Assembly: GCF_055900595.2 (NCBI RefSeq)
Contig: NZ_JBVWEU010000002.1
Length of the DNA stretch: 64,000 bases
DNA from: a plasmid
Strand: one strand, 5' to 3'
In this document: positions 3,590 to 55,668 of the stretch, one piece after another
Numbering within the stretch: the stretch's first letter is position 1
How the letters are laid out: each line of letters begins with the position of its first letter
Made by a program: the position numbers and the translations under genes
Notes under the pieces: generated by a model
Told to the model about the DNA's origin: nothing
Seen by the model: only the letters and a program-made list of their open reading frames with translations
Databases searched by the model: none

Positions 3590-3657
3590 AGTTATATCCT
3601 CGGCGTTTTTATATATTATGAGTGCAACACCAACAATAATTCTGATTATGATAAATA

Positions 3658-4773: not shown

Positions 4774-5199
4774 CCTCTTTTGTTTTCATGTAATCATTAT
4801 AAAAATAAATTATCTTACATAAACAATTATTAAACAAAATCAAGAGAGATTAAATGTAAAAACAATGTTTGTTTTTATATGGCAGGATCCTTCAGGTTAT
4901 TGCGTATGTTTTTATTGGATGTTCTGCTTATTATTGATGAGTAATAGCATTATAATAAAGTTCATATTGTTAACATCGCTTATCAATTATTTTTATGTCG
5001 ATAACACTGTGTCGTTATGCATGAAGAGTGGCAGGGCAGCATCGTTAAAAATACAAGAGTTAACAGAAACACTTTTATCGTGGCGCACATATATCCTCCA
5101 CATATTATAAAAAATAAAAAGACCACCATCAGAAGTGCTGGCCTTTTGTTTATCATATTTAAAGTGTCATGAAAAAATTAAAAACAGGCATGTTTCAGG

Positions 5200-6159: not shown

Positions 6160-7439
6160 GTTAACTCCATTCCACTCGTTTGTTTTTGATAAATATTTTT
6201 TATTTACTCGTAGTAGTCAACTGAAAAATGCTGTTTTATTTAACGTTTGTTTACAATGTGGCCGCATGTCGCTTTATTTATTCCCTTTTATGTCAGAATA
6301 TCAGGGGAGTCAGTCAAACCCGGTATGATTACTGCCCCGGTCATCCATGTTCCAGGAAATATCAGGGCATACAGGGTGCTGGTAACTGCGAATAAGGCCC
6401 TGGTCGGACACTTTATGCCGGGAACGTCTGTAACATGGAAACCGGTACCTTCTTCCTGGGTTTATTTTGTTAACTCTTATCTAAAGGGAGACAAAATGGC
6501 CAAATCCTGCGATTATGAAGCAATCAGGGGCTTTATTAGCGTTAATGTCGGCAAAGATACCAATAACGCCATTACAGTTAATTATTCAGATAGCGTTTGT
6601 GCGACAATGCATTACCATTCGACGAAAATAAACTCAGGTGGTTGATATCAGAAATCAACCGTGGCTCCACCTACAAAAAAAGTTGCTGGTTTATAAATCC
6701 CTCCTTTCTGATTAATAAGAAAACTAATAACATATGAGTGTGATTACTTGTTCAGATAAGTTAATTATCTTAGTGATTGATATTTATTTTGTTTCAGTGA
6801 AAATGATGCTTTTATTAGAAAATTTATAAATACCAAGTCGGTGGTGTTTATTAGTGTAATGGAGGGGAGTGCGTAAATCGTTCATGTAACACTTCCTTCC
6901 AATAATACTTTATAAATCAATAGATGTATGATTACTTATTTCCTGAAATATCATATATATTGCTATATTTCTTAACGAGATATTCTTATTTTATTGATAA
7001 TTGCATCTCTTTTATTTAATGTAAAGCTTTCTTATTAATCTTCTAATGTATTGCAAAATGGTAGATGCTGAGTAATCAACAGACTTGTATGTAAAGTCAA
7101 GATTAACGTTGCTAAAGCACGCATCAATTTTCTGATAAAAGGATGGGGTTGTTTTTTTCGATAAAAAAAATTCTTGTCTAACCACTGGTGAAATAAGATT
7201 ATTATTACCCCGAATTAATACTGAGCCTAACAATAGAATACAAAAAAAACAAAATGCTTTAAATAAGGGGAGCACTATAAGTTATCCTCTTTACTTTATG
7301 CTTACCAACTCATTTATGTTACTTTATAACATAACCCATCTTGCGTTGTAAACAGACTCGTTTTAGTTCCATGCACCTTTTGAGATCGTGACCAAATAAT
7401 GGCGTTAGTGATGTTCTTCCAGTGTCATATGGTTAAGTA

Positions 7440-8460
<1,021 letters not shown>

Positions 8461-35832: not shown

Positions 35833-36198
35833 ATGATTGATGTCTTAGGACCGGAGAAACGCAGACGGCGTACTACACAGGAAAAGATCGCTATTGTTCA
35901 GCAGAGTTTTGAACCGGGAATGACGGTCTCCCTTGTAGCCCGGCAACACGGTGTGGCAGCCAGCCAGCTATTTCTCTGGCGCAAGCAATACCAGGAGGGA
36001 AGTCTTACTGCTGTGGCCGCAGGAGAGCAGGTCGTTCCTGCCTCTGAACTTGCTGCTGCCATGAAGCAGATTAAAGAACTCCAGCGCCTGCTCGGCAAAA
36101 AAACGATGGAAAATGAACTCCTTAAAGAAGCCGTTGAATATGGGCGTGCAAAAAAGTGGATAGCGCACGCGCCCTTATTGCCCGGGGATGGGGAGTAA
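35833..36198 (+). CDS. insC: IS2 transposase OrfA
   Basis: [56 protein letters not shown]... matches IS2 InsC as I recall it. Confidence 0.85.
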
Positions 36199-36821
36199 GC
36201 TTAGTCAGCCGTTGTCTCCGGGTGTCGCGTGCGCAGTTGCACGTCATTCTCAGACGAACCGATGACTGGAAAGATGGTCGCCGCAGCCGTCACTCCGATA
36301 ATACGGATGTGCTTCTCCGTATACACCATGTTATCGGAGAGCTGCCCACGTATGGTTATCGTCGGGTATGGGCGCTGCTTCGCAGACAGGCCGAACTTGA
36401 TGGTATGCCTGCGATCAATGCCAAACGTGTTTACCGGATCATGCGCCAGAATGCGCTGTTGCTTGAGCGAAAAACCGCTGTACCGCCATCGAAGCGGGCA
36501 CATACTGGCAAAGTGGCCGTGAAAGAAAGCAATCAACGATGGTGCTCTGACGGGTTCGAGTTCCGCTGTGATAACGGAGAAAAACTGCGAGTCACGTTCG
36601 CGCTGGACTGCTGTGACCGTGAGGCACTGTACTGGGCGGTCACTACGGGCGGCTTCGACAGTGAAACAGTACAGGACGTCATGCCAGGAGCGGTGGAACG
36701 CCGCTTCGGCAACGAGCTTCCGGCGTCTCCAGTAGAGTGGCTGACGGATAATGGTTCATGCTACCGGGCTAATGAAACACGGCAGTTTGCCCGGATGTTG
36801 GGGCTTGAACCGAAGAACACA
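36156..36821 (+). pseudogene. insD: IS2 transposase OrfB, 3'-truncated
   Basis: First about 222 aa match IS2 InsD; the ORF then reads through into unrelated ABC-ATPase sequence. Confidence 0.8.
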
Positions 36822-37292
36822 GAGTTGAGTGCGTCTATCCTGGAGAACGTTGCTGTTGTGCCTCAAAAAGCCGTTCTGGTGCAGGGAACTATTCGTGATA
36901 ATATTCTGTATGGAACCGATGACATTCTTCCCGATGATGAACTGTTTTGCATCCTGAATTCATTAGGGTTAATTAAAGAGGACTGCGGAGAACATTTCCT
37001 TGCTTTCCTAGACCGGGATATTAATCCTCTGGGTAGTGGTTTGAGTGGTGGAGAGATCCAGCGATTATGCATAGCCCGCGCCCTAGCCCGTAAGAAAAAG
37101 ATTATCGTACTTGATGAACCCACGGCCTCTATTGGCGAAGAACTCGCGATAAAGATCATTACCTATATCCGGCAGCATTGCCCTACCGTTATTATTACAA
37201 CTCATAATCCACGAATTCTGGAGCTCGCCGATCATTTTTTTGATGGTATGTCAAAGTCTTGCGTCATTGCTGGAGAAGGCAGAGACCAATAA
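36822..37292 (+). pseudogene. C-terminal fragment of an ABC-transporter ATP-binding domain
   Basis: ...[11 protein letters not shown] ... [15 protein letters not shown] ... [12 protein letters not shown] ... VIITTHNP; no Walker A or upstream portion. Confidence 0.55.
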
Positions 37293-37493
37293 ACCACACA
37301 CGTTAATTCATTTATATCTAATCGGGGTTGTACGCCGGAAACGCCGAAATTTCCGATACAGCGAATTTGTTGATTTTTGAAGCATGTTTGGAAGGTTTTG
37401 ACGTGTACGTTTATGGTGCAGTAAGTGAGAATTTATTCGTACCAGCCATATGATACGTTACGGGCAGTGATTTTTCGCGCTAGACAGCTATTT

Positions 37494-37746
37494 GGGGTTT
37501 GGGGAGTAGTGGAACTCAAAAGGCGGTTAAGCGGTTCAATTGAATGGTCAATAACAGGTAAATCAATCTGTTGAGATCAACAACGTCGTTTGTTCCGCAA
37601 ACGGCCAGGATGAGTAAAGCCAACTTGGCCCCCCCCAAAACAGATAGCCAAGAACGCAGATTCACGATGTAAATTGGCTGGTTGATTTTTGGCTATTTAA
37701 AATGACCGCTTAACGGCGGTTATTGTTCCACTGAGCCTCAAACCCC
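37494..37746. repeat. Pair of inverted Tn3-family 38-bp terminal repeats about 250 bp apart (miniature Tn3-derived element or internally deleted transposon)
   Basis: Arms GGGGTTTGGGGAGTAGTGGAACTCAAAAGGCGGTTAAG and (reverse complement) GGGGTTTGAGGCTCAGTGGAACAATAACCGCCGTTAAG resemble the Tn3 IR GGGGTCTGACGCTCAGTGGAACGAAAACTCACGTTAAG. Confidence 0.5.
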
Positions 37747-37969
37747 GAAACCTGGATTTTTCCGCGACCAGTAACGGCGTGGGTTGTCACATAAACGACC
37801 GATTGAGTGACTGTCACTGAAACAACGATTTCTGCATCAGATTTCGTCACATAACCCGTCACCTATTCAACGTCATGCAAATCTGTCAATTACTGGCTTT
37901 GGTTACGGAATTTTCTAGGTTTTCGGCTTAGAACCCCAAATAGTCTTAACGTGGTTTATTTTCCGAATT

Positions 37970-38248
37970 TCAAGCGCCCCCCTGGATGAGCGTGATGATT
38001 ACTGGCGGACCTTTGACGTTCCAGCAAATTCCCCTGTTCCACATAGGTTTCCAGATATGACCGGTTATTTTCACGTTCGGTGTACGTGTTACAGCTGCAT
38101 TATCAATATCATCAGGGATAAAATTGTAAGATCGTGGAAAATGTTTATTCATAGCCCGGATGATGGCTGTCTGTGCATCCTTTGTTCGGGCGCGGTGTTT
38201 CCATTCACGCCAGCCATCCACCTCAGAAATAATAACAGTAATCATCAA
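37970..38248 (-). CDS. Hypothetical protein
   Basis: 92-aa ORF between the Tn3-IR pair and the FinO-domain gene; no recognisable motif. Confidence 0.2.
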   Translation of the reverse strand: MMITVIISEVDGWREWKHRARTKDAQTAIIRAMNKHFPRSYNFIPDDIDNAAVTRTPNVKITGHIWKPMWNRGICWNVKGPPVIITLIQGGA

Positions 38249-38302
38249 AACCTCGTGTCGTTACTCAATTTTGATTCCATAGCGGGACAGCATTTCACAT
38301 AA

Positions 38303-38968
38303 TTATGCCCCGTTATGAATGCAGGCGTCCTTCAAATTGCTGTCCGGTGTGACAGTTTTCGATGGTTGGTTGCAACGAGCATCTTCTGTCTCTTTCATCC
38401 TGGCGTTATAACGCTGCGTGTGTTTTTCAAGTTTTGCCTGCGCATACAGCGCTTCTTCCTCCGTTACAGTTCCATGAACTTTGCCATCCAGACCATAACG
38501 CGGAGTACCTGCGACTGATATACGCTGCAGATATTTGTAACCGCCAGTAATCATCCTTACAGCACAATTCCATTCTTTTACAGTTAGTCCACACTCAGGA
38601 CTGGCCGAAATAAAAGCCATGACATCCTTTGAGATGCCTATTTTAAATGCATGATATCCCCCCTCTTCAGCCCGTAACTGAGGGAATGTTTTTTTAACAC
38701 AGTCCAGACTGTGTCGGATAAACTCATGATTCCATCTATTGTTCTTCTTTTTTTTCTTCTTCTTACGTCCTGTTTTTTTCTGTTGTTCCGGGGAACCGGC
38801 CACTGTGGCTGGTATTTCAGGAGGTAATGAGTCGGTTTTAAATTCCATTACTGGCGCTGGTTTTATATCATCAGGAACTGCCTGTACAGCATCATCCTGA
38901 TGAGAAAGAATTCGTCTTTTTTTCTTAATAATAACAACAGGTGACGGTTTCTTTGTAACACTGCCCAT
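38303..38968 (-). CDS. FinO/ProQ-domain protein (putative RNA chaperone) with lysine-rich N-terminal region
   Basis: C-terminal region (FPQLRAEEGGYHAFKIGISKDV...LTVKEWNCAVRMITGGYKYLQ...GTPRYGLDGKVHGTVTEEE) parallels the canonical FinO at 60264-60824; KKKKKKKNNRW tract; start taken at second ATG. Confidence 0.55.
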   Translation of the reverse strand: MGSVTKKPSPVVIIKKKRRILSHQDDAVQAVPDDIKPAPVMEFKTDSLPPEIPATVAGSPEQQKKTGRKKKKKKKNNRWNHEFIRHSLDCVKKTFPQLRAEEGGYHAFKIGISKDVMAFISASPECGLTVKEWNCAVRMITGGYKYLQRISVAGTPRYGLDGKVHGTVTEEEALYAQAKLEKHTQRYNARMKETEDARCNQPSKTVTPDSNLKDACIHNGA

Positions 38969-39070
38969 ATACACACCTCTGCGTATCGTTAATATATAAT
39001 GCACGACATACAGATAGTATATATCTGAGTCGGTAAAGTCACCAACAGAAGAATAATAACATGTATTTCA

Positions 39071-39349
39071 TTACTGTTCGCGAATTATCACTCTGGATTC
39101 CTTCCTGGTGACATAAGTACAGTTATCAGGTACATCTTCCATAATAAAAGACATTGCCCCGATTTTAACATTACTTCCGATTTTCACATTTAACCCAATA
39201 ATACATGTATGGGCACCAATATCGACATTATCACCAATAACAATATAGTTTTCCCTACTGTCAGAAACCTTTTCACCAATGGTTGTATTCTGCCGTATAA
39301 TGACATTCTCACCGATATCAACATTACCATGAATGACGATTCCTGCATG
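39071..39349 (-). pseudogene. C-terminal half of a hexapeptide-repeat (LbH) acetyltransferase gene, separated from its N-terminal half (54358-54678) by the IS1-bounded unit
   Basis: Reads HAGIVIHGNVDIGENVIIRQNTTIGEKV...IGDNVDIGAHTCII... directly from the IS1 end; the 9 bp TCCTGCATG abut the IS1 end. Confidence 0.6.
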
Positions 39350-39631
39350 GGTAATGACTCCAACTTATTGATAGTGTTTTATGTTCAGATAATGCCCGAT
39401 GACTTTGTCATGCAGCTCCACCGATTTTGAGAACGACAGCGACTTCCGTCCCAGCCGTGCCAGGTGCTGCCTCAGGTTCAGGTTATGCCGCTCAATTCGC
39501 TGCGTATATCGCTTGCTGATTACGTGCAGCTTTCCCTTCAGGCGGGATTCATACAGCGGCCAGCCATCCGTCATCCATATCACCACGTCAAAGGGTGACA
39601 GCAGGCTCATAAGACGCCCCAGCGTCGCCAC
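39350..39631 (-). mobile_element. IS1 fragment (right-end about 280 bp, inverted), truncated internally
   Basis: Starts GGTAATGACTCCAACTTATTGATAGTG; encodes the InsB C-terminus on the minus strand. Confidence 0.8.
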
Positions 39632-40486
<855 letters not shown>

Positions 40487-41095
40487 TAATTACACTGTGG
40501 GTTGACGCCGGAAGAATCAGAGAACAGATACCGTTCTTACTGTAAAACGTGGCTAATATTAATTGAGCACTGCAGTGTTCAGAGCACAAAGAAGAAAAAA
40601 GATGTGTGCGAATGCCTGTAATGTGTTAAAAGAATGTTCCGCGTTTCCGGTACGCTTTTCGTAACTAACAATGCAGGGTGACGTAACGCTGGTTGTGCCG
40701 GAAACGCGTCCCTCCCCCTATCTTTCCTGTTTGGATTTGCCCCTATATTTCTGGATTATCCGACAAAACCGGCGTGAAGTATTACTCTCGTCGCCCAGCA
40801 CCATAAGGATAACGCCCATAAAATCATGAAACTTTTCTTCCAGATTGGATACAATCAGGCCGAAACGGTGATGAATATTATCCAAATCTGATGGTTCGTA
40901 GCGTTTTCAGCCCCCAGATTCTGAGTTGCCTGTAGGGATGATTTCAATTCCCGATTTGTCTATCGCATAGAGAAAAAGAATTTCATTTCTGTTCACCAGA
41001 ACCCATGTAACCCACTCCAATTCGTTATTTATCTCACTGATTGCCCTTCATTTATCTCATTGATGCACCGAAAGGTAAAACTGCCATCCGGTGCA

Positions 41096-42025
41096 TCACG
41101 CTCGATGCATCAAATCCTGATAAATCCCCGTCAGTATTCCTTGTAAGCTAAATTCTCTTTTTATCCACTGAGTGACTTGACCGCTTGCCGAATGCCTGGT
41201 TGCCAACAGCATTCGTGAATCCTGACGTGGGTTGTGGATCTGCCGTGTCACCAGCAATGACTTTTCCATCGCTTCACGCACCATATAGTCTGGCAGAAAA
41301 CCGATTCCCTCCCCCAAGATCTGGCACTGAAGCTTAGTATTAAAGTCGGGAACCAGAATCGACTCTTGCCCGTGTAACAGCCAGCCGACTTTTTTGTTTA
41401 TAGTGTTTGCAGTGTCTTCCACCATGATGTTCGGGTACAGACGTAACTGACTCTCAGAAATGGGCTCAGGAATAAACGCCAGCGGATGAGCCGGAGAAAT
41501 CGCGAACAACCAACGAATCATGCCGATTTCAATGTAATCAATTCCACCACCGTCCAGTAACGTATCGGGCGCGCCAATGGCGATATCAGCCTGGTTATTA
41601 ATGAGTGAATCCCAGACGCCATTATACACCTCTGTAGTAATAGCTATCTGGCAGGTTGGAAAGTGTTCCCTGAGCACTTGCAGAAGCCGAGCTGTATGCT
41701 GAGGGGTATACAACAGTTGATTAATACAAATGCGCACCCGGGATTTAATTCCCTGAGCGATGGCATCAACTCTACGTATGATGGAGTGGTAATCGTTGAG
41801 CAGGTCAGTTGCTTTGCAAAAAAGGTAGTGCCCGGGCTCGGTCAGCTCAATGCTACGGGTAGTTCGGGTAAAAAGCACCACGTCAAGCCCCATTTCCATA
41901 CGCTTGATAGTGTAACTAATTGCCGATGTGGTTAAGCCCAGTTCCTTCGCCGCCTTGCTGAAACTTCTATAGCGGGCAGCCATAGTAAATGCCAGTAAGT
42001 TTTCTTCCGTAAATATTGAATTCAT
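41096..42025 (-). CDS. LysR-family transcriptional regulator, divergent from cluster 2
   Basis: Start taken at internal ATG 42025 (MNSIFTEENLLAFTMAARYRSFSKAAKELGLTTSAISYTIKRME...); HTH plus LysR substrate-binding domain. Confidence 0.75.
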   Translation of the reverse strand: MNSIFTEENLLAFTMAARYRSFSKAAKELGLTTSAISYTIKRMEMGLDVVLFTRTTRSIELTEPGHYLFCKATDLLNDYHSIIRRVDAIAQGIKSRVRICINQLLYTPQHTARLLQVLREHFPTCQIAITTEVYNGVWDSLINNQADIAIGAPDTLLDGGGIDYIEIGMIRWLFAISPAHPLAFIPEPISESQLRLYPNIMVEDTANTINKKVGWLLHGQESILVPDFNTKLQCQILGEGIGFLPDYMVREAMEKSLLVTRQIHNPRQDSRMLLATRHSASGQVTQWIKREFSLQGILTGIYQDLMHRA

Positions 42026-42412
42026 CTTTCTTTCCTCTGGCGACAATACACATACACAACATGATGATTGTTGAATGTATTTGTAATTCTTATAACCGAC
42101 AATCAGTTTTGAAAAAACTAACACCGTATTTACATTTAATTTGAAGGAAATCACACATCTGAATTTTAATTACAGGCAGCTATCCGTGCTGCAGACCACC
42201 TTTATTTATATGACTGCGGATTAATGGCTAAAATATCCCCAGCTATAATAGAAATATTGCACTATATCACACTCTCTTATTATTGTTAATTTTGTTTCAA
42301 TAATTCATGGTCTAATGATGAGTAAATTTTAAATGGATGGTGCTCTATGCATTCTGTTGCTATTCTTGGCTTGTTATATTTGTAAAATCTTAAAAAGAGC
42401 AGGAGATCGATT
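42026..42412. promoter_or_regulatory. Divergent control region between the LysR gene and the cluster 2 operon
   Basis: 387-bp AT-rich intergenic region between divergently oriented genes; inferred from arrangement only. Confidence 0.35.
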
Positions 42413-43018
42413 ATGTCCAATAAAGAACTCATTACAGAATTTCTGCTGGCGGCAGAACAAGGTAATTCCGATGGATTAAAATCATGCCTTGATAAAAAGG
42501 TTGATATTAATGCGACTAACCGCGAGGGGCGTACTGCAATTATTATTGCCAGTCTGAATAAACATTATGACTGCGTTTCTTTATTGATTTCCGCAGGTGC
42601 TGATATTAATAAACAAGATCAAACTTGTTTTAATCCCTTCCTGATTGGCTGCCTGAATAATGATTTAACACTGTTGCGTACGGTATTACCGGCTAACCCC
42701 GACCTTAATTGCCTAACCCGTTTTGGCGGTGTTGGTATTACACCTGCCTGCGAAAAAGGCCATGTCGAGATTGTACGTGAATTGCTGATGCGTACTGATA
42801 TCAATGTCAACCATACTAATTTTGTTGGCTGGACGCCGCTCCTAGAGGCCATCGTGCTGAATGACGGCGGTGAAAAGCAGCAGGAGATCGTCAAACTGTT
42901 GCTTGAGCATGGCGCAAACCCGCACATGACGGATAAATACGGTAAAACCCCGCTGGAGCTGGCGCGAGAAAAAGGCTACCACAAAATTGCCGAGTTGCTG
43001 ATTTCGGCTGGAGCCTGA
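42413..43018 (+). CDS. Ankyrin-repeat protein (YahD-like)
   Basis: 201 aa; repeated ...G.TAL..A...GH...V..LL..GAD.N.. units. Confidence 0.75.
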   Translation: MSNKELITEFLLAAEQGNSDGLKSCLDKKVDINATNREGRTAIIIASLNKHYDCVSLLISAGADINKQDQTCFNPFLIGCLNNDLTLLRTVLPANPDLNCLTRFGGVGITPACEKGHVEIVRELLMRTDINVNHTNFVGWTPLLEAIVLNDGGEKQQEIVKLLLEHGANPHMTDKYGKTPLELAREKGYHKIAELLISAGA

Positions 43019-43103
43019 CAACAGGAGCACGATTATCGCTATATTATCACGGCAATCTTTTCGGGCACTAACCGCAGACTGCGCGTTTCTCACTTTTCGG
43101 GGA

Positions 43104-43952
43104 ATGGGCCAGGTTGAACAGGTTTTTTCCCATGCGGTAAATCTGTTAATACCTGAACAGCAGCGACTGCTGACGTTACTGAGTGAGGATTGTGATAACG
43201 CACCTAACAGTTGTCGTTTAGCACTGACACATTATGAAGACCTTTTTCACCCCGGTGAACAGGTCAATTTTAGCGGGTCTGGAATAACTGTTGGAAATGA
43301 TAAATGGATAGAAATAACCGGTTGTCAGATGTGGCGAATACCACGGTGGACATCTGATTCAGCAAGCCTTGCCAAAGTCGGCTGGCAGCATTGGGAAGAG
43401 TTTATCCGCCAACAACTAAGAAGCAACGACACATTATTTCTGTACCAGGGTGACAATCCATTTTATCAGGAAATTTCTCGCCAATTACTCAACCGCCGAA
43501 AAAATTTGCTGAAGGCGTTGTGTACAGGAGAAAACATCACTGCGGCAGTCAACCAGTTAATTGGTCTTGGAATAGGGCTGACGCCATCATCGGATGATTA
43601 TTTAGTAGGTTTAAGCACTATTTTATTTATTCAAGGACATCCACTAAGGAAGTATAGATACGATTTCTTAGCAGCATTACAACTTGCAGGAAATAACATA
43701 ACGCTTCTCAGCAAAATAACGTTAGAGGAAGCATTTAATCAGCGTTATCGGGAAAGAGTCGGACGGCTACTGAACCAATTTATTACTGAGCCACAACCCA
43801 TTTCTACGCAATATGTTACTGACATAAAAAATATAGGCTCAAGTTCTGGATGCGACATGCTGTATGGCATGGCGGATGCCTGCGCCCTGAGCCACAGGTC
43901 CGGAGGTAATTATGTCAATCAGGATAGTTGTAAAAAAAAACACGTATTTTGA
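43104..43952 (+). CDS. DUF2877-family protein (YahE/YlbF-like)
   Basis: 282 aa; paralog of 27254-28114. Confidence 0.55.
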   Translation: MGQVEQVFSHAVNLLIPEQQRLLTLLSEDCDNAPNSCRLALTHYEDLFHPGEQVNFSGSGITVGNDKWIEITGCQMWRIPRWTSDSASLAKVGWQHWEEFIRQQLRSNDTLFLYQGDNPFYQEISRQLLNRRKNLLKALCTGENITAAVNQLIGLGIGLTPSSDDYLVGLSTILFIQGHPLRKYRYDFLAALQLAGNNITLLSKITLEEAFNQRYRERVGRLLNQFITEPQPISTQYVTDIKNIGSSSGCDMLYGMADACALSHRSGGNYVNQDSCKKKHVF

Positions 43953-45459
43953 TTCTGTTTCACTGATGTCTATCTCCACGCGCGCAAATAAGCTTGATGG
44001 AGTTGAGCAGGCATTTGTTGCTATGGCGACAGAGATGAATAAGGGGGTGCTGAAGAATCTCGGTCTGCTGACCCCTGAGCTGGAAGAGGCGAAAAGTGGC
44101 GATCTGATGATTGTCATTAAAGGTACCAGCGAGGAGGCGAACGAGCGGACGCTAATAGCGATTGATGAGCTGTTTGCGCATAAAGAACAGGGAGGCCAGC
44201 ACGAAGCACGCTATGCCACGATTGCCAGTGCGAAGAAGCATGCTCCAGAGAGTAATCTGGCGGTGATCTCTGTCAATGGCCTGTTTGCTGCTCGTGAAGC
44301 TCGTCAGGCACTACAAAATAACCTCAATGTTATGCTGTTTTCTGACAACGTCTCTCTTGAGGACGAGCTGGAACTCAAGCATCTGGCACATGAAAAAGGG
44401 TTGTTGATGATGGGGCCTGATTGTGGAACCGCCATCATTAACGGCGCAGCGTTGTGTTTTGGCAATGCAGTGCGTCGCGGCAACATCGGAATCATTGGTG
44501 CCTCCGGTACGGGTAGCCAGGAGCTGAGCGTACGCATTCACGAATTTGGCGGCGGGATTTCCCAGCTGATTGGGACAGGTGGACGCGATATGAGTGAAAA
44601 AATTGGCGGCCTGATGATGCTTGACGCGATTAGCATGCTGGAGGCCGATCCACAAACTGAGATCATTACGCTTATATCCAAACCTCCTGCACCAGCGGTA
44701 GCCCGTAAGGTGCTGGAACGTGCGCGCACCTGTCACAAGCCTGTGGTGGTGTGTTTCCTCGGACGTGAGTCCACCCCTGCGGATGAAGAAGGCCTACAGT
44801 TTGCCCGCGGTACTAAAGAGGCTGCCTTGAAAGCGGTACTGTTGACTGGTGTGAAAAAAGAGAGTCTGGATTTGCATCCGCTCAACTGGCAGCTGATTGA
44901 AGAGGTTCGCTCCCGTCTGACTCCACAACAAAAGTATATCCGTGGCCTGTTCTGTGGTGGCACGTTATGCGATGAAGCGATGTTTACTGCCATGGAAAAA
45001 CTCTCGGATGTGTATAGCAATATTCACCCGAATCCGGCGTTCCGCCTTACAGATCTCAACCGTAGCGTGGCGCATACCTTCCTCGATTTCGGCGATGATT
45101 ATTTTACCAACGGCAAACCACATCCGATGATCGATCCCACCAATCGCATTACCCGGCTCTTGCAGGAAGCACAGGATCCTGAAGTTGGCGTGATCGTGAT
45201 GGACTTCATTCTTGGATTTGGATCACATGAAGATCCGGTTGGAGTGATGCTGGATACAATTGTTGAAGCCAAAGAAATTGCTGCCGCAGACGGTCGCCCG
45301 CTTGAGATCCTCGGCTATGTGCTGGGAACCGACCTTGATACACCGTCGCTGAAAAAACAGTGTCAGATGTTGACCGATGCCGGGGTTATTTGGGCAAGCA
45401 GTAGCACCAACACCGGATTACTGGCACGTGAATTTATATTTAAAGGGGAGGAAGGCTGA
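43912..45459 (+). CDS. FdrA-like protein (YahF-like)
   Basis: 515 aa; paralog of 28209-29768. Confidence 0.7.
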   Translation: MSIRIVVKKNTYFDSVSLMSISTRANKLDGVEQAFVAMATEMNKGVLKNLGLLTPELEEAKSGDLMIVIKGTSEEANERTLIAIDELFAHKEQGGQHEARYATIASAKKHAPESNLAVISVNGLFAAREARQALQNNLNVMLFSDNVSLEDELELKHLAHEKGLLMMGPDCGTAIINGAALCFGNAVRRGNIGIIGASGTGSQELSVRIHEFGGGISQLIGTGGRDMSEKIGGLMMLDAISMLEADPQTEIITLISKPPAPAVARKVLERARTCHKPVVVCFLGRESTPADEEGLQFARGTKEAALKAVLLTGVKKESLDLHPLNWQLIEEVRSRLTPQQKYIRGLFCGGTLCDEAMFTAMEKLSDVYSNIHPNPAFRLTDLNRSVAHTFLDFGDDYFTNGKPHPMIDPTNRITRLLQEAQDPEVGVIVMDFILGFGSHEDPVGVMLDTIVEAKEIAAADGRPLEILGYVLGTDLDTPSLKKQCQMLTDAGVIWASSSTNTGLLAREFIFKGEEG

Positions 45460-46877
45460 TGAGCCAGACACTGTTTAATCAGCCGCTGAACGTTATTAAT
45501 GTCGGTATCGAAATGTTCAGCGATGACATGAAAAAGCAGAATGTACCGGTAACCCAACTTGACTGGACACCGCCAGGCCAAGGAAACATACAAGTGGTAA
45601 CGGCACTGGACGACATTGCCGCTTCACCACTGGCAGACAAAATTGCAGCTGCTAATCAGCTGGCGCTGGAACGCATTATCCAGTCGCATCCTGTGCTAAT
45701 TGGCTATGATCAGGCGATCAACGTCGTGCCGGGTATGACCCGTAACACTATCCTTCACGCCGGGCCGCCAATCCACTGGGAAAAAATGTGCGGCGCAATG
45801 AAGGGCGCAGTAACCGGGGCTCTGGTATTTGAAGGACTGGCGAAAGATCTGGATGATGCCGCCGAACTAGCTGCTTCAGGTGAAATCATCTTCTCTCCGT
45901 GCCACGAACATGACTGTGTCGGCTCAATGGCGGGTGTCACGTCTGCATCGATGTTTATGCACATCGTCGAGAACAAAACCTATGGAAACCGCGCATATAC
46001 CAATATGAGCGAGCAGATGGCAAAGATCCTGCGTATGGGCGCTAACGACCAGAGCGTTATAGAGCGTCTTAACTGGATGCGAGATGTACTGGGACCTATG
46101 TTGCGCGATGCTATGAAGCTGGCGGGCGAAATCGATCTGCACTTGATGTTAGCGCAGGCGCTGCATATGGGCGATGAGTGCCATAACCGCAACAACGCCG
46201 GGACGGCGCTGCTGATTCAGACGCTGACGCCGTGGATTATTCAGACTGGCTACCCTGTTGAGCAGCAGCGTGAGGTGTTCGAGTTTGTCCTCAGTAGTGA
46301 TTACTTCTCAGGACCAACATGGATGGCAATGTGTAAAGCCGCAATGGACGCTGCGCACGGCATTGAATACAGCACCGTGGTGACAACGATGGCACGCAAT
46401 GGTGTTGAGTTCGGTCTTCGTATTAGCGGTTTGCCGGGCCAGTGGTTTACCGGTCCGGCGCAGCAGGTGATTGGGCCGATGTTTGCGGGCTATAAGCTAG
46501 AGGATTCCGGACGTGATATCGGTGATAGTGCAATTACCGAAACCTACGGCGTTGGCGGTTTCGCTATGGCGACGGCACCAGCTATTGTGTCACTGGTGGG
46601 CGGAACAGTTGAGGAAGCTATTGATTTCTCACGTAAAATGAGAGAAATCACTCTCGGAGAAAACCCCAACGTCACCATTCCCCTGCTTGGTTTTATGGGC
46701 GTACCGACCGCTATCGATATTACACGTGTAGGCAGTACAGGCATTCTGCCGGTAATTAACACAGCCATTGCGCACAAAGACGCAGGGATCGGCATGATCG
46801 GCGCAGGAATTGTTCACCCGCCGTTCACTTGTTTTGAAAAGGCGATCCTCAACTGGCGTGACCACTACTGCCAATAA
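45459..46877 (+). CDS. DUF1116-family protein (YahG/YlbE-like)
   Basis: 472 aa; start overlaps upstream stop; paralog of 29765-31189. Confidence 0.65.
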   Translation: MSQTLFNQPLNVINVGIEMFSDDMKKQNVPVTQLDWTPPGQGNIQVVTALDDIAASPLADKIAAANQLALERIIQSHPVLIGYDQAINVVPGMTRNTILHAGPPIHWEKMCGAMKGAVTGALVFEGLAKDLDDAAELAASGEIIFSPCHEHDCVGSMAGVTSASMFMHIVENKTYGNRAYTNMSEQMAKILRMGANDQSVIERLNWMRDVLGPMLRDAMKLAGEIDLHLMLAQALHMGDECHNRNNAGTALLIQTLTPWIIQTGYPVEQQREVFEFVLSSDYFSGPTWMAMCKAAMDAAHGIEYSTVVTTMARNGVEFGLRISGLPGQWFTGPAQQVIGPMFAGYKLEDSGRDIGDSAITETYGVGGFAMATAPAIVSLVGGTVEEAIDFSRKMREITLGENPNVTIPLLGFMGVPTAIDITRVGSTGILPVINTAIAHKDAGIGMIGAGIVHPPFTCFEKAILNWRDHYCQ

Positions 46878-46989
46878 CAATAACCGGGGCTAACGCAGTT
46901 AGCCCCACAGTAGCGGAAAACGTTGTTTACCTTCAGGGCTGGGCGATCTCCATGATCGCAAACGATGCTTAACCTGTTAAGGAGATTCC

Positions 46990-48540
46990 ATGAACAGCAT
47001 AAAACTAGAATGGAAACGTGGTGACTGGGCGGCTTACTTTGGACTGATGACCAACAATCTGACTAACCTGCTGACAATGATGGGTCTGCTAATTTTTGTC
47101 GTCGGAATCCCTACTGAAATTGTCTATGGACGCATTGCGCCTGCCTTTGGTCTTGCAGTGCTGGCGGCCAGTGTCTGCTACTCCTGGTTTGGTCTACAGA
47201 TGGTGAAGAAAACCGGTCGTAGCGATGTAACGGCGCTGCCGTCTGGACCGAGCGCACCCTCAATCTTTACCGTGACATTCCTGGTGCTGATGCCGGTTTA
47301 TCAGCAAACCAAAGATGCCAACTTTGCTATTCAGATAGGATTGGTGTGGTGCTTTGTCGAAGCGTTGATCCTGGTCGGTGGCTCCTTCCTGGGTGAGACT
47401 ATCCGCAAGATGATCCCGCGTACAGTGCTGCTTTCTTGTCTGTCCGGACTGGGGTTATTACTGCTGGCAATGAACCCGATGCTGCAAGCGTTCGAAGCGC
47501 CGACAGTTTCTTTCATCGTCCTGTTATTGATCTTCATTAACTGGTTCGGTAAGAAGCCGATTTTTCCCCATATTCCTACCGGTTTGCTGTTGCTGATTGC
47601 TGGTACGTCCCTAGCGTGGATATCCGGTTTACAAAGCCCGGAAGACATTAAAGCGTCGATGTCTTCCTTCGGCTTCAACCCGCCGGAAATTCATGTAAGG
47701 AGCTTCCTGCAAGGTTTGCCGCACGCTCTGCCATATCTGGCTTCTGCAGTTCCTTTGGGCCTGGCTAACTACATTTTTGACCTCGAGAACATTGAAAGTG
47801 CGCACGCGGCTGGTGATGAATACAACACCCGTAAGGTCATGATGGCGAACGGCTTTGCCTCCATGCTCGGTTGCATGCTGGGTAATCCGTTCCCGGTAAC
47901 CGTATATGTTGGGCATGCAGGCTGGAAAGCTATGGGCGCTAGTATCTGCTATACCCTCGCATCAGGCATCACTATGTTCCTGGTGCCATTGTTTGGGTTG
48001 GGCGCGTTTATGCTCGCCATTATTCCCATGACTGCTATAGTGCCAATTCTGGTTTTTATCGGTGTGGTAACCGCCAATCAGGTGGTGCGAGAAACTCCTA
48101 AAGTCGAGGTTCCCGTCATTTTCATCTGTCTGTTCCCATGGGTCGCCAACTGGGCATTGACCATCGTTAACAGCGTGATGGGCGCAGCCGGAACATCCGC
48201 TGAGAAACTTGGTAGCGACCTGTTGCACAGCAAAGGCGTCTATTACGATGGACTGATGCATCTGGGAAGCGGTGCACCGCTGGCCAGCATGCTGTGGGGA
48301 TGCATTGCTATCTTTGCCATTATGAATAAGCCGCTGCGCGGGGCGATAGCTGCATCCTTTGGAGCACTGTTATCGCTGTTTGGCGTGATTCACTCCCCAG
48401 CGGTTGGCTTTGCGGAAGGCAGCTCGATTGTGTTTGTTGTGGCCTACCTGATGATGCTTGCTATGTTTGCCCTCAAGCATGTTATTGATAGCCGTGAAAC
48501 AGTGGCTGCGTCTGAGCAGGAAGAGACTAAAACGACCTGA
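46990..48540 (+). CDS. Polytopic permease (nucleobase/NCS2- or AzgA-like; family uncertain)
   Basis: 516 aa with 12 or more hydrophobic segments; sits between the DUF1116 and carbamate kinase genes. Confidence 0.5.
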   Translation: MNSIKLEWKRGDWAAYFGLMTNNLTNLLTMMGLLIFVVGIPTEIVYGRIAPAFGLAVLAASVCYSWFGLQMVKKTGRSDVTALPSGPSAPSIFTVTFLVLMPVYQQTKDANFAIQIGLVWCFVEALILVGGSFLGETIRKMIPRTVLLSCLSGLGLLLLAMNPMLQAFEAPTVSFIVLLLIFINWFGKKPIFPHIPTGLLLLIAGTSLAWISGLQSPEDIKASMSSFGFNPPEIHVRSFLQGLPHALPYLASAVPLGLANYIFDLENIESAHAAGDEYNTRKVMMANGFASMLGCMLGNPFPVTVYVGHAGWKAMGASICYTLASGITMFLVPLFGLGAFMLAIIPMTAIVPILVFIGVVTANQVVRETPKVEVPVIFICLFPWVANWALTIVNSVMGAAGTSAEKLGSDLLHSKGVYYDGLMHLGSGAPLASMLWGCIAIFAIMNKPLRGAIAASFGALLSLFGVIHSPAVGFAEGSSIVFVVAYLMMLAMFALKHVIDSRETVAASEQEETKTT

Positions 48541-48566
48541 ATAGCCTGCAAACGGAAGATAATTCT

Positions 48567-49529
48567 ATGAAAGAACTTGTGGTCGTTGCCATTGGTGGCA
48601 ACAGCATTATCAAAGATAACGCCAGCCAGTCGATTGAGCATCAGGCGGAGGCGGTGAAGGCCGTCGCCGATACGGTTCTGGAAATGCTGGCTTCCGATTA
48701 CGACATTGTGCTGACCCACGGCAACGGGCCGCAGGTCGGTCTGGATTTACGCCGCGCGGAGATAGCCCACGAGCGCGAAGGGCTACCCTTAACGCCGCTG
48801 GCGAACTGTGTGGCGGATACGCAAGGCGGCATTGGCTATCTGATCCAGCAGGCGCTGAACAACCGGCTGGCGCCTCACGGCGAGAAAAAAGCCGTCACCG
48901 TGGTGACTCAGGTGGAAGTGGATAAAAACGATCCGGGGTTTGTCCATCCCACCAAGCCCATCGGTGCATTCTTTAGTGAAAACCAGCGTGATGAACTACA
49001 AAAGGCAAACCCTGACTGGCGTTTTGTTGAAGATGCCGGACGGGGCTATCGCCGCGTGGTCGCCTCGCCGGAACCGAAACGTATTGTCGAAGCACCTGCC
49101 ATTAAGACTCTGATCCAGCAAGGCTTTGTGGTGATTGGCGCGGGCGGCGGTGGCATTCCGGTGGTGCGTACTGACGCAGGGGATTACCAAAGCGTGGACG
49201 CGGTTATCGACAAAGATCTCTCTAGCGCGCTACTGGCTCGCGAAATTCACGCCGACATTCTGGTGATCACCACCGGCGTGGAAAAAGTGAGTATTCATTT
49301 TGGGAAACCCAACCAGCATGCACTGGATACAGTGGATGTCCTAACGATGGCCCGTTACATGCAGGAGGGTCACTTCCCGCCTGGGAGTATGTTACCGAAG
49401 ATTCTTGCCAGTCTGGAGTTCCTGGAACGTGGAGGTAAAAGAGTGATTATCACCACGCCTGAATGCCTGTCCGCGGCACTGCGTGGCGAAACAGGCACCC
49501 ATATTATCCACTCCCAAGAGGAGACGTAA
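48567..49529 (+). CDS. Carbamate kinase (YahI-like)
   Basis: 320 aa; AIGGNSI ... THGNGPQVG ... GAGGGGIPVV; paralog of 31182-32138. Confidence 0.8.
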   Translation: MKELVVVAIGGNSIIKDNASQSIEHQAEAVKAVADTVLEMLASDYDIVLTHGNGPQVGLDLRRAEIAHEREGLPLTPLANCVADTQGGIGYLIQQALNNRLAPHGEKKAVTVVTQVEVDKNDPGFVHPTKPIGAFFSENQRDELQKANPDWRFVEDAGRGYRRVVASPEPKRIVEAPAIKTLIQQGFVVIGAGGGGIPVVRTDAGDYQSVDAVIDKDLSSALLAREIHADILVITTGVEKVSIHFGKPNQHALDTVDVLTMARYMQEGHFPPGSMLPKILASLEFLERGGKRVIITTPECLSAALRGETGTHIIHSQEET

Positions 49530-50626
49530 ATTAAGGAAAGCGACCGCCGCCGTGAATTTTTAATGTTCATTGCAGATTATCGTGGGCTGGAAATGATAAC
49601 GGTTGGGGAGTTATTGTTTAGTTGCTAAAACAGAACGATAACCAACCCCAACCGTTCTCAATTTCGAATACTATCTTTTCCATTTATCTCTGGATAGGCT
49701 TTGACGTCGTCCCTACTGAGTAAAATCCCCCTCATCATCCACCTAAAACCGATTGAAAACGGTCATTACTCTTGTGGCAAACAGGCTAAAGCCGTTCACG
49801 ATGCTTCACTTCGCACCTTATCGTAATGAACAATACTGGTATTTCCAGTTCAGTTACGCCTACCCGTCTACCGCATTCTTTGCCCTAACTACGGCATAGT
49901 TCGGGATTATATCAGCTGGCTAAAGCCTTATGCTCATCAGACCACATGACTCATTGAGCATGTTGAGGCGTTACTCAAAATCTTGCCGATTAAACATATT
50001 TCGTAATTTCTTACCCTGCACTAGCATATCATCAATACTATCGACAAACGTCAGTTGCAAATAGAGGTCACAGGGTCTGATTGATGTACTGCCAAGGCCG
50101 GGTCATGAAAGAGTTTGCCCTGTTCAAAGCTCATCGTTACGCACCGTCGTAGCCGATGCGGATACTCATCAATCCTCTGGATAGGTGAGGTGCGTAGTAG
50201 AGAAGCTCGGTCGTTTTTCGTTAATCTGAATCAGTACTGTCAACATATTCAAGTCGTTAATATGGATATGAATACCTCCTTTGACCTAGAGGTACAGATG
50301 CACTACCCCCCAAGCTGTCAACGACGGATGAAAAGTGGCTCTTCCGCAACCTGGATGGAGATTTTCATGCCAGTGGACTCATGACCCTCTGCCTGAGTAG
50401 TTCAAATCCGGCTCGACCATACATCTGGCCTTTCAGCATTTTTAGCCAATTTACATGACTTTCGACACCCCCCATTATTCCAGCGACTGCTGATTGCCTC
50501 ACATATAGCCGCAGCATCAGCTGCCATCCTTGCAGCCACGCGCCGAAGTTACCACTTTCTCGTTGCTCTTTTAACCACTCCCTCCATGGGTCCAGAAGTC
50601 CTCACTCTGGAGGCCGGGTTGACATT

Positions 50627-51439
50627 TCAGGGAATGTTCCTGAACACACCCAGAGACTGTCTGTCACACGTGATAAGCCTGTAATACGGGATAAGCCTGT
50701 AATACGGGATATTTCCCCTGAACCCACATCCCTTGTTATGTAGTGCCATAACCTCTGTCCAACGCTGATGCCGTTTTTGGCGGGTTTGCTGTTTAAGGCG
50801 TTCCGGACGACGGAGCGATGCTACAGGCACAGACAGTACTGGCTTAGGTGATTTCTTTGGTGACAACCCACTGGCAACAAGACGTATCAGAGGCATCTGT
50901 CTGTACATCATTCGTTCAGGCGCATCGCCAATATTTTTTAGCCGGTGCCATCGAGCTGCTATCTGTCTGGCCTGAGGTGCACCTTCACGTGATGCTGTCG
51001 CATAGACTCCGCCACGGTCACATGAGACAACCTGTATTTCCGGATATTTTCTGAACCAGGTCGCCAGCGTACTCTGCTCGCAACCGGGAAGCAGGACGAG
51101 GGGACGGTGAGTATAAAGATTGACGATTAACGTACCGTAATGGTAGCCCCGATGCCACGCCCACTCATCAATACCGACATGAGGCGCGCCTGACTGTTTC
51201 GTCTCCGGGGTATTAATAACCCTGCGAAGAAGAGTATCAGCACTGCAACGGAGCCCCACTGCCGTTGCTGCCTGTTTCCCGGCCTCACCTCCGGCTATTA
51301 ATCCCAGTTGATGTTGTAAATTTTGTAACACCTGTGAAGAATGCTGGGAGTGAACCGGCGAAGGGGGCAAGCGACCCGGCAAAAATTTTACGTGAACAAG
51401 CCGGGTTACGGCAGTACCAGTGGCGGACGGAAAATACAA
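50627..51439 (-). pseudogene. ISL3-family transposase fragment (N-terminus missing), with an in-frame tandem duplication near the C-terminus
   Basis: ...GIDEWAWHRGYHYGTLIVNLYTHRPLVLLPGCEQSTLATWFRKYPEIQVVSCDRGGVYA...; NIPYYRLIPYYRL from a direct 18-bp duplication; upstream end cut near the IS1 left end. Confidence 0.45.
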
Positions 51440-51685
51440 GCCATAGCGTCTGCCCTGAGCAGGGTAGATGCTGTATCCGGCGCCGACGATAACTATGAAC
51501 AGAGTCGCTACGCTTAAAGCATTCAGGACTTGTGCTGTTTTGCGTTTTCCGTGGAGATGGAGGGTTATACCGTCAGAGCTAATAATTTGTCGACTGCATC
51601 TCCATCCGCAAGGTAACTGTAGAAGTGTCTGGTGATGCTGCCAACTTACTGATTTAGTGTATGATGGTGTTTTTGAGGTGCTCCA

Positions 51686-53992
<2,307 letters not shown>

Positions 53993-54357
53993 CTAAATCG
54001 CGCCAGCGCTGGCTGTTTTACGCGTATGACAGTCTCCGGAAGACGGTTGTTGCGCACGTATTCGGTGAACGCACTATGGCGACGCTGGGGCGTCTTATGA
54101 GCCTGCTGTCACCCTTTGACGTGGTGATATGGATGACGGATGGCTGGCCGCTGTATGAATCCCGCCTGAAGGGAAAGCTGCACGTAATCAGCAAGCGATA
54201 TACGCAGCGAATTGAGCGGCATAACCTGAATCTGAGGCAGCACCTGGCACGGCTGGGACGGAAGTCGCTGTCGTTTTCAAAATCGGTGGAGCTGCATGAC
54301 AAAGTCATCGGGCATTATCTGAACATAAAACACTATCAATAAGTTGGAGTCATTACC

Positions 54358-54678
54358 TCCTGCATGATGAGGTAACATGAGGCCTTTACCAATCCGCGCG
54401 CCCAGGCCGATATCACATCCATACCGTTCCATAAGTGCATTTTTTATCTTTATCGCACATTTCCTTTGTTTTTGGTTTCCAGAGATAAACATCTCATTGG
54501 CCAGGCGCCACCACATCAGAAAGCCTCGTTGTCTCTGCAACCCGTTTCTTATCAGGCGGTGTAAGACAAACTTATCCCGCATGATGACTTCGGCTTTCCA
54601 GTATTCTGACAGATTACGACTTTTACCTGACAATAAAAAGGTGGCAATATGAAAATAAGCTAATGGATTTTTCATCAT
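54358..54678 (-). pseudogene. N-terminal half of the hexapeptide-repeat (CysE/WcaB-like) acetyltransferase gene interrupted by the IS1-bounded unit
   Basis: MMKNPLAYFHIATFLL...WRLANEMFISGNQKQRKCAIKIKNALMERYGCDIGLGARIGKGLMLPHHAGG then IS1; joins in frame with 39071-39349 once the 9-bp duplication is removed. Confidence 0.6.
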
Positions 54679-54781
54679 AAAAACGACCTTAAAGAATAAA
54701 GAAAATATTCTGTATTGTGGAATAAAATAACATAACTATCAGAAATACTTTTAAAGTAATATCAGTCAGCTTTAAAGATAA

Positions 54782-55069
54782 CTATCTCATTCTCTCACTG
54801 GCGAGATTATAAACGTTACTACGTTCACGTTTACCTACCGCGACAACCGCAATAATTAGCATGTCATCAATAACCTGATAGACCAGACGAAACCCCGATG
54901 CGCGAAGTTTGATTTTGTAGCAGTCTTTTAATCCACGCAGTTTTGCGGAAGGAATATGAGGATTTTCGCTGCATTTCTTTAGTTTTTTCGCAAACTGCTG
55001 TTGAATGGATTTATCCAGTTTCAGCCATTCTTTGAGCGCATCATCCCTGAATTTTACTGTATAAGTCAT
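54782..55069 (-). CDS. RelE/ParE-family toxin
   Basis: 95 aa; ...GFRLVYQVIDDMLIIAVVAVGKRERSNVY; overlaps antitoxin gene by 4 nt. Confidence 0.75.
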   Translation of the reverse strand: MTYTVKFRDDALKEWLKLDKSIQQQFAKKLKKCSENPHIPSAKLRGLKDCYKIKLRASGFRLVYQVIDDMLIIAVVAVGKRERSNVYNLASERMR

Positions 55070-55317
55070 AAATAACTGTCCAGGTCCACATCATGCAGTG
55101 GCTGATTGCTGCGTTCAGTAACCAGTTTCACCAGTTCCTGGTCATCCAGCGCATCAAGCATCCTTTCATAGAGTTCCGCAGGCACACAGTAGAATGCCGG
55201 CTGATTCCGGTTAAGAATGGCGACAGGATAACCATCTCCGGCACTGACTGTAGCCATAGGATTTTTTTTCAGTTCACTGACACTTGCACTGGTGTCAGAC
55301 AGAATGATGTTAGGCAT
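55066..55317 (-). CDS. Phd/YefM/RelB-type antitoxin
   Basis: 83 aa, upstream of and overlapping the toxin gene. Confidence 0.7.
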   Translation of the reverse strand: MPNIILSDTSASVSELKKNPMATVSAGDGYPVAILNRNQPAFYCVPAELYERMLDALDDQELVKLVTERSNQPLHDVDLDSYL

Positions 55318-55427
55318 AACGTACCTTTGAGACTGTTTAACAAGTCTTAAAGATACCTCTGAAAGGACCGGTTAACAAGTCTGTATTACTCATACTTTTG
55401 CAAATACATTTAATGCTGGTTTTATTG

Positions 55428-55668
55428 TTCTGATGCCGCGTGAGCGGCATGGAAGGCGGTATAATGTAGCTACATATGGCACAAGAGTAAAACCGCCGAA
55501 GCCCGGCGTAAGCCGGTACTGATTGATAGATTTCACCTTACCCATCCCCGTCCTGCTAAGCCATGCCCGCTGTCAGCCATGAGAGAGCTTATGTGCGCGG
55601 TCGGAGTGGTCCCGACGAGGGTTTACCCGAAGTCGGGGCGTATCTCCGCGTTAGCGGGCCGTTAGGGC
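55428..55668 (+). other. Second, shorter copy of the structured IS110-3'-flank-like segment (no transposase gene attached)
   Basis: Aligns with 17036-17160 and 17330-17425 (e.g. shared GTGCGCGGTCGGAGTGGTCCCGACGAGGGTTTACCCGAAGTCGGG); lacks the about 165-bp middle segment. Confidence 0.4.

Follow-up and report, generated by a model that had tools for sequence, protein, structure and literature searches.

The 64,000-nt stretch of a ColV-type virulence plasmid analyzed here (contig NZ_JBVWEU010000002.1; "the window") carries, besides a canonical finO, a gene at 38303-38968 for a genuine, intact second FinO-domain protein of 221 aa. Comparison with related plasmids places this gene in a maintenance module that adjoins a replicon of the FII/FIC type. 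The protein most resembles FopA, an RNA chaperone of IncI1 plasmids, and we therefore call its gene FopA-like. Taking all of the evidence together, we consider it probable that the protein is a FopA/PcnR-type chaperone of the FII/FIC replicon module; by analogy with those two proteins, we infer for it a role in copy-number control.

The protein and its relatives

The reading frame begins with an ATG at 38968, which has a Shine-Dalgarno (SD)-like GAGGTG 7 nt upstream. An alternative GTG start at 39004 (233 aa, 12 additional residues) was rejected: homologs align from the ATG, and RefSeq places the start at the same position. The product is 100% identical to WP_000536047.1, a "ProQ/FINO family protein" of pAPEC-O2-ColV. 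Its family is already annotated, and the subfamily (FopA, PcnR) has been characterized.

Does the protein indeed contain a FinO domain, as a reading of the sequence alone had proposed? Profile searches and structure prediction agree that it does. The ProQ/FinO profile PF04352 matched residues 87-192 with an E-value of 4.9e-13 and a score of 49.5 bits, above the curated cut-off of 27; the match spans positions 7-108 of the 109 in the profile, i.e., nearly the whole domain. The NCBIfam models for ProQ and FinO match the same stretch, below their own full-length cut-offs, and a sequence search of the PDB returned ProQ (5nb9, 2e-6), RocC and FinO. In an AlphaFold (AF2) model built on 39 homologs, residues 81-200 have predicted local distance difference test (pLDDT) values of 97-98. 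When this model was compared with the PDB using Foldseek, the only structures above noise were those of FinO domains: FinO (1dvo; E 2e-6), RocC (7rgt and 7rgu; target-normalized template-modeling score of 0.83-0.85 for 7rgt), Lpp1663, NMB1681 and ProQ. Tyr146 and Arg157 are near-invariant across the 39 homologs; their ProQ counterparts in the alignment are the tyrosine within "WRY" (Tyr70) and the arginine within "TRVDLDG" (Arg80), a conserved pair that belongs to the pocket for the RNA 3' end. The equivalent residues of FopA have been named (PMC7491321).

Outside this domain, the Pfam search found neither a FinO_N domain nor a ProQ C-terminal domain in the protein. The N-terminal 80 residues are without secondary structure in the model and contain two basic stretches, KKKRR at residues 15-19 and RKKKKKKK at 68-75, followed by Trp79. 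When the gene is compared with a 95%-identical allele, its ratio of nonsynonymous to synonymous substitution rates (dN/dS) is 0.13 (0.17 for the N-terminus, 0.11 for the domain); on this measure, it is evolving under purifying selection. We consider it very probable that the 221-aa protein is a functional RNA-binding protein of the FopA type.

The word-index protein search returned near-identical proteins only; more diverse homologs came from an exhaustive search of 1.8 billion representatives. YafB is another name for FopA, which serves the Inc/repZ antisense system as its RNA chaperone (PMC7491321); it is 41% identical to the 221-aa protein in a full-length alignment, and tblastn matched yafB loci with E-values near 1e-23. 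By sequence identity, the protein is closer to FopA than to FinO (23%) or ProQ. Distant relatives with 37-50% identity over the domain, yafB of IncI plasmids included, occur on approximately 3,000 plasmids. Among them are proteins with about 37.5% identity over the domain on plasmids of approximately 60 kb; these may be PcnR of IncI2 mcr-1-type plasmids, an assignment made from plasmid size. Homologs on IncB/O plasmids have been mentioned in the literature as "putative ProQ/FinO family proteins" (PMC8053102). The two basic stretches are present in most full-length FopA-like homologs recovered by the exhaustive search.

The gene itself is present in 131 PLSDB plasmids and in 141 of the 5,426 complete Escherichia coli genomes, where it is plasmid-borne in every case; most of these are poultry or avian pathogenic E. 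coli (APEC) strains. In a collection of 15 billion proteins, the exact 221-aa protein was found on at least 1000 contigs, as was a 98%-identical, 218-aa allele, WP_000536048.1, known from IncK2/Z (I-complex) plasmids. The two alleles differ at their 3' ends: the ColV allele is without one C (~38360-38365, gene nt ~605) that all IncK2/Z-type alleles possess. This loss shifts the frame of the last ~18 codons, giving 221 rather than 218 aa and a different C-terminal tail.

The replicon module and the IS1-bounded insertion

In the window, the FopA-like gene lies about 15 kb from the replicon. The uninterrupted order on IncK2/Z plasmids is repA, phd/relE, serine acetyltransferase gene, FopA-like gene and small open reading frame (ORF). 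One such locus, L003, matches the window in two blocks: its positions 3621-5048 correspond to 37938-39349, and its positions 5040-7793 correspond to 54358-57114, the latter with ~90% identity. The second block holds the 5' half of the acetyltransferase gene, relE/parE, phd, a small ORF and repA. The two alignments overlap at L003 5040-5048. These nine base pairs, TCCTGCATG, are single-copy in the uninterrupted acetyltransferase gene of L003; in the window, they occur as a direct repeat at 39341-39349 and 54358-54366, flanking a 15-kb segment that has IS1 sequence at either end. A 9-bp repeat with IS1 ends at both sides is a classic IS1 target duplication, from which we conclude that insertion of the 15-kb element broke up an ancestral module. 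The pAPEC-O2-ColV annotation shows the element to contain LysR, ankyrin, DUF2877 and carbamate-kinase genes (a metabolic island) together with IS100. We also considered whether 37938-39349 was an orphan 1.4-kb IncK2/Z fragment captured beside IS1. This idea was rejected given that the remainder of the module is at 54358-57114, the IS1 ends match and the 9-bp duplication is present.

Judged from these alignments, the FopA-like gene belongs to a maintenance module adjoining the FII/FIC-type replicon, and the ancestral order along the minus strand was copB, CopA, repA1, phd/relE, serine acetyltransferase gene, FopA-like gene and small ORF (Table 1). The assignment of copB is our reading of an 82-aa ORF: its counterparts in the loci L010 and L024 are annotated "replication regulatory protein RepA", and the DNA is homologous to the repressor gene of L010.

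A comparable arrangement is found in Klebsiella. The unrelated IncFII(K) plasmid pIT-11C07 (L024 3259-6451) has copB, CopA (81.8 bits), tap and repA, followed by the gene for a ProQ/FINO protein of 187 aa; this protein and the 221-aa protein align over their full lengths (31% identity, E 2e-24). On this pKpQIL-like plasmid, the replicon is followed at a distance of 1.2 kb by the FopA-like gene and a DUF2913 gene. The recurrence suggests that the association of FopA-like genes with CopA-type replicons is widespread. The plasmid pO145-13516, for its part, has lost copA and most of repA1 (L010 6999 corresponds to window 56384-57422) but has kept copB, the toxin gene and the acetyltransferase gene; its FopA-like gene bears three homopolymer frameshifts. 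Replicon and chaperone may have decayed together in this plasmid, a pattern that fits a functional coupling of the two. Rfam searches of the pO145 locus and of the other loci found neither CopA nor Inc; for pO145, the absence of CopA is explained by the deletion of copA and repA1.

Table 1. Coordinates of the FopA-like gene, its parts and the features of the split module in the window (nt numbers refer to the coding strand of the gene).
Feature	Position	Strand	Basis or remark
Small conserved hypothetical gene, 58 nt downstream of FopA-like gene	37970..38245	minus	no Pfam match
FopA-like ProQ/FinO-domain protein gene	38303..38968	minus	221 aa, identical to WP_000536047.1
FinO domain, residues 81-200	38369..38728	minus	Pfam, AF2, Foldseek, near-invariant columns, ProQ alignment
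Disordered N-terminal region, residues 1-80	38729..38968	minus	AF2 without secondary structure, pLDDT 59-77
Seven-lysine tract, codons AAG AAG AAG AAA AAA AAG AAG	38744..38764	minus	contains A8 run and A_AAA_AAG heptamer
A7 run, gene nt 190-196	38773..38779	minus	coding-strand sequence
Further A7 runs	38917-38923 (nt 46-52), 38689-38695 (nt 274-280)	minus	coding-strand sequence
Native 102-bp intergenic region upstream of FopA-like gene, with SD	38969..39070	minus	conserved with IncK2/Z plasmids
3' remnant of hexapeptide-repeat serine acetyltransferase gene, cut by IS1	39071..39349	minus	Hexapep E 1.4e-10; homology to L003 4770-5048
IS1-bounded 15-kb insertion	39350..54357	.	IS1 ends and 9-bp direct repeat
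Full IS1, left end of insertion	39350 to ~40117		extent inferred from usual ~768-bp IS1 length and transposase coding sequence 39365-40062
Inverted 281-bp IS1 end, right end of insertion	54077..54357
5' remnant of same serine acetyltransferase gene	54358..54678	minus	homology to IncK2/Z locus
Toxin-antitoxin pair: relE/parE 54782-55069, phd/yefM 55066-55317	54782..55317	minus	as in IncK2/Z plasmids
repA1, IncFII-family replication initiator	56281..57150	minus	~90% nt identity to IncK2/Z repA
CopA antisense RNA of FII/FIC replicon	57223..57313	plus	Rfam RF00042, 97.9 bits
copB (repA2) transcriptional repressor	57451..57699	minus	our reading of 82-aa ORF
Canonical finO, 186 aa, FinO_N and ProQ/FinO domain, intact	60264..60824	minus	domain search

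Several other features of the window were recorded. The small ORF at 37970-38245 always accompanies the FopA-like gene in the IncK2/Z, pO145 and ColV contexts; relative to pAPEC-O2-ColV, it has a 15-bp in-frame deletion at 38095/38096 (TGCAAATAATACAGG is missing). With a permissive threshold, an Rfam search of 37200-39500 detected no known RNA adjoining the FopA-like gene. Elsewhere in the window, Rfam matches comprised an AS-pc02 antisense RNA adjoining finO at 59834-60019 (+), the sok antitoxin RNA at 58120-58278 (-), the ALIL frameshift pseudoknot of the IS3 family at 14870-14986 (-) and STnc490 at 13960-14033 (+). The 378-aa ORF at 36156-37292 (+) is chimeric: an IS3-family transposase (HTH_21, rve) is fused with a C-terminal portion of an ABC-transporter ATPase, probably as the scar of an IS insertion. 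Many ColV plasmids are annotated with this fusion as well.

A candidate role in copy-number control

What might a second FinO-domain protein do on this plasmid? Guidance comes from two characterized members of the subfamily: FopA binds and protects Inc and speeds the pairing of Inc with repZ, while PcnR binds the repR leader, and both lower initiator synthesis and copy number (PMC7491321, PMC8053102, PMC9977716). FinO domains recognize the shape of an RNA, namely a terminator-like hairpin with a 3' tail, and not its sequence (PMC9977716). Because the module is syntenic with copB-CopA-repA1, the likeliest role of the protein would be that of a chaperone for CopA/repA antisense control. By analogy with FopA (Inc/repZ, IncI1) and PcnR (repR/repA leader, IncI2), its ligand would be the antisense RNA CopA, the repA leader or both; the bound RNA would be stabilized or would pair faster; RepA synthesis would fall; and the plasmid's copy number and cost would be kept down, the protein acting as a brake. 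The lysine tract would serve as the second basic RNA-contacting stretch that is typical of the FopA-like subfamily. FinO would handle FinP/traJ, and hence transfer, while the 221-aa protein handled CopA/repA, and hence replication.

The RNAs concerned have some resemblance. The Inc RNA of IncK2/Z plasmids scored 41.7 bits against the CopA covariance model, which is below threshold. It nonetheless has features in common with the CopA of the window: a long GC-clamped stem, a CGCCAAAG loop and a UUUUC(G)CUU 3' end. The repA leader of the window gave a partial match to the repZ stem-loop model. We regard the chances that CopA/repA is the main target of the 221-aa protein as about even. The earlier suggestion that a second chaperone may serve a different antisense system is reasonable, and synteny gives it a named candidate in CopA/repA of the FII/FIC replicon. 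A broader proposal, that FopA-like proteins are an unrecognized cofactor of CopA-CopT control in IncFII-family replicons, including FIC (ColV) and FII(K) (pKpQIL-type Klebsiella), is put forward tentatively, as somewhat the less likely case. In the literature that was searched, we found no work linking a FinO-domain protein to copy-number control of ColV, CopA/IncFII or pKpQIL plasmids, no recognition that this subtype belongs to the CopA-type FII/FIC replicon module on ColV plasmids and no mention of FopA-like genes adjoining copB-CopA-repA replicons in Klebsiella.

Several considerations weigh against a copy-number role. CopA-CopT pairing in R1 is regarded as independent of protein. The FopA-like gene has been separated from the replicon by ~15 kb since the IS1 insertion and may thereby have lost transcription from upstream; a scan for promoters and terminators around the gene found sites no more numerous than in shuffled sequence. 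Near-identical alleles of the protein adjoin two types of antisense system, Inc with the repZ pseudoknot on IncK2/Z plasmids and CopA here, so that specificity, if there is any, would have to be one for the shape of the RNA. There is also an intact allele without a neighboring repA (L009), and the co-decay seen in pO145-13516 concerns a single lineage. Finally, the domain, fold, family architecture, synteny, insertion and allele spectrum are observed, but that the 221-aa protein binds RNA, which ligand it has and how it acts on copy number are matters that we infer from its relatives.

Some of these same observations could be taken to mean that the gene is a passenger without a cognate target on this plasmid, uncoupled from the replicon by the IS1 insertion and either drifting or acting in trans. 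Targets in trans might be Inc/RNAI of co-resident I-complex plasmids or chromosomal terminator hairpins, much as FinO acts on RepX of pRSF1010, and FopA and FinO are each known to bind some foreign RNAs (PMC7491321, PMC8136791). The IS-rich mosaic around the gene, its distance of 15 kb from repA, the lack of a convincing promoter in the scan, the existence of null alleles and, in the ColV allele, the loss of 1 nt that gives the last ~18 residues a new sequence all speak for such a passenger. On the other hand, most of the ColV-type plasmids with this gene possess it intact and with 100% identity, its family is under purifying selection, and it retains its native 102-bp upstream region with the SD. 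Moreover, the gene and the CopA replicon still share one molecule, and RNA chaperones work in trans. We view the passenger explanation as a serious but unlikely one, and the chaperone of the FII/FIC replicon module remains the reading that we prefer.

The lysine tract raises a separate question. The segment KKKKKKKNNRW ahead of the FinO domain is present as the sequence-only reading described it (residues 69-79, with a CGT codon directly before the tract), and the homopolymers of about 8 and 7 nt are likewise real: an A8 run at gene nt 214-221 (38748-38755, coding strand), the A7 run at nt 190 and two more A7 runs. Are these runs, in or near the tract, an evolved slipped-strand contingency switch for the chaperone, as that reading had entertained? 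Four A-runs of 7 or more do invite the idea, as does the existence of slippage products in public assemblies. Three runs allowed a look-up of both products, and each has alleles with -1 and +1 changes: 35 and 4 contigs, respectively, at A8, where frameshifts are commonest; 9 and 2 at A7 (nt 190); and 10 and 1 at A7 (nt 274). At A7 (nt 46), the -1 allele occurs on 1 contig; the +1 product fell short of the length needed for a look-up. The A8 -1 allele recurs in ColV, IncK2/Z-type and pO145 backbones, and in-frame K6 and K9 variants found elsewhere indicate that slippage happens in the tract.

The lengths of the runs and the frequencies of these changes speak otherwise. When synonymous codons were resampled for the same protein according to the codon usage of the window, the longest simulated A-run had a median of 11, compared to the observed 8 (probability of 8 or fewer, 0.16); four runs of 7 or more were observed vs. 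2.8 expected (P = 0.26). The tract is interrupted by AAG, which accounts for 5 of its 7 Lys codons, compared to 19 AAA and 9 AAG in the whole gene; two or fewer AAA codons in seven would arise with P = 0.004-0.015 under local Lys codon usage. This scarcity of AAA holds the longest run at 8, which is short for a phase-variable tract in mismatch-repair-proficient E. coli. FopA of IncI1 keeps KKKKK with no A-run above 6, so the long runs are not conserved in homologs. All frameshift alleles together occupy ~62 contigs vs. at least 2000 intact (~3% or less), and some of them may be sequencing or assembly errors or signs of general decay, as the other split genes in some carriers suggest. Frameshifts that are rare, deletion-biased and scale with run length are what a mutational hotspot would give, rather than a contingency locus. 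The variation that was to be looked for exists at low frequency, and we consider a switch very improbable; judged by codon usage and allele counts, the A-runs are a by-product of lysine codons and low-frequency frameshift hotspots. Programmed -1 ribosomal frameshifting or transcriptional slippage, yielding a 77-aa N-terminal peptide beside the full-length protein, is scarcely credible: a dnaX-type heptamer, A_AAA_AAG, is in the correct frame within the tract (nt 216-222; 38747-38753) with an AGGA 13 nt upstream, but a stimulatory hairpin is missing within 5-9 nt, the closest one being ~30 nt downstream, and FopA has G_AAA_AAG instead.

Implications and comparison with known systems

Both the ColV/ColBM plasmids found in avian and extraintestinal pathogenic E. 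coli and the pKpQIL-type plasmids of Klebsiella are medically important, and the number of copies determines the dosage of their genes and what they cost in fitness. For IncI1 and IncI2 plasmids, work on FopA and PcnR established that replication is tuned by proteins with a FinO domain; synteny suggests that the same layer of control may exist for CopA-type FII/FIC replicons. If this is true, two FinO-domain chaperones divide the work on one plasmid, FinO serving transfer through FinP/traJ and the 221-aa protein serving replication through CopA/repA. The plasmid also offers a clean natural case of two FinO-domain proteins for the study of target selectivity. Slippage at the A-runs, by contrast, marks at most the commonest route by which the FopA-like gene is lost.

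How does the 221-aa protein compare with its characterized relatives? With FinO of F-like plasmids, it has in common the FinO domain and a short N-terminal P-V-x-x-x-K-(R/K)-K motif, which reads RPVLTLKRK in FinO and SPVVIIKKK in FopA-like proteins (here residues 10-17; 38918-38941). FopA has been described as being without FinO's N-terminal domain (PMC7491321), despite this common motif. Unlike the 221-aa protein, to which it is only 23% identical, FinO has a FinO_N domain; its gene lies at the tra operon's end, and its targets are FinP/traJ.

PcnR of IncI2 mcr-1 plasmids likewise has a FinO domain, is encoded close to repA and lowers copy number (PMC8053102). It binds the repR-leader stem-loop independently of antisense RNA (PMC8053102), a mode that the 221-aa protein may or may not share. 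The 98%-identical WP_000536048.1 of IncK2/Z plasmids has the same gene neighborhood; it differs in the extra C near the 3' end of its gene, which results in a different 15-residue tail, and in adjoining an Inc/repZ-pseudoknot leader rather than CopA.

The closest parallel is FopA (YafB) of the IncI1 plasmid pCol1B9. Both proteins are plasmid-borne and comprise a disordered N-terminus with two basic stretches, a Trp and then the FinO domain; the common layout runs from an N-terminal P-V-(I/V)-(I/V)-(I/V)-K-K-(K/R)-R through a variable acidic/proline linker to the second polybasic stretch with its Trp and the FinO domain. Two polybasic stretches in the disordered N-terminus have been described for FopA itself (PMC7491321). 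The 221-aa protein is nevertheless of another subtype: its acidic/proline linker is longer, and its C-terminal tail differs. Its neighboring replicon is of the CopA type (copB-copA-repA1) and not Inc/repZ with a pseudoknot, and an IS1-bounded insertion parts its gene from that replicon. Inc/repZ and FopA have equal phylogenetic distributions according to Gerovac et al. 2020 (PMC7491321). In both systems, the gene belongs a few kilobases downstream of an IncFII_repA-family replicon that is under the control of an antisense RNA of ~70-90 nt with a CGCCAA loop.

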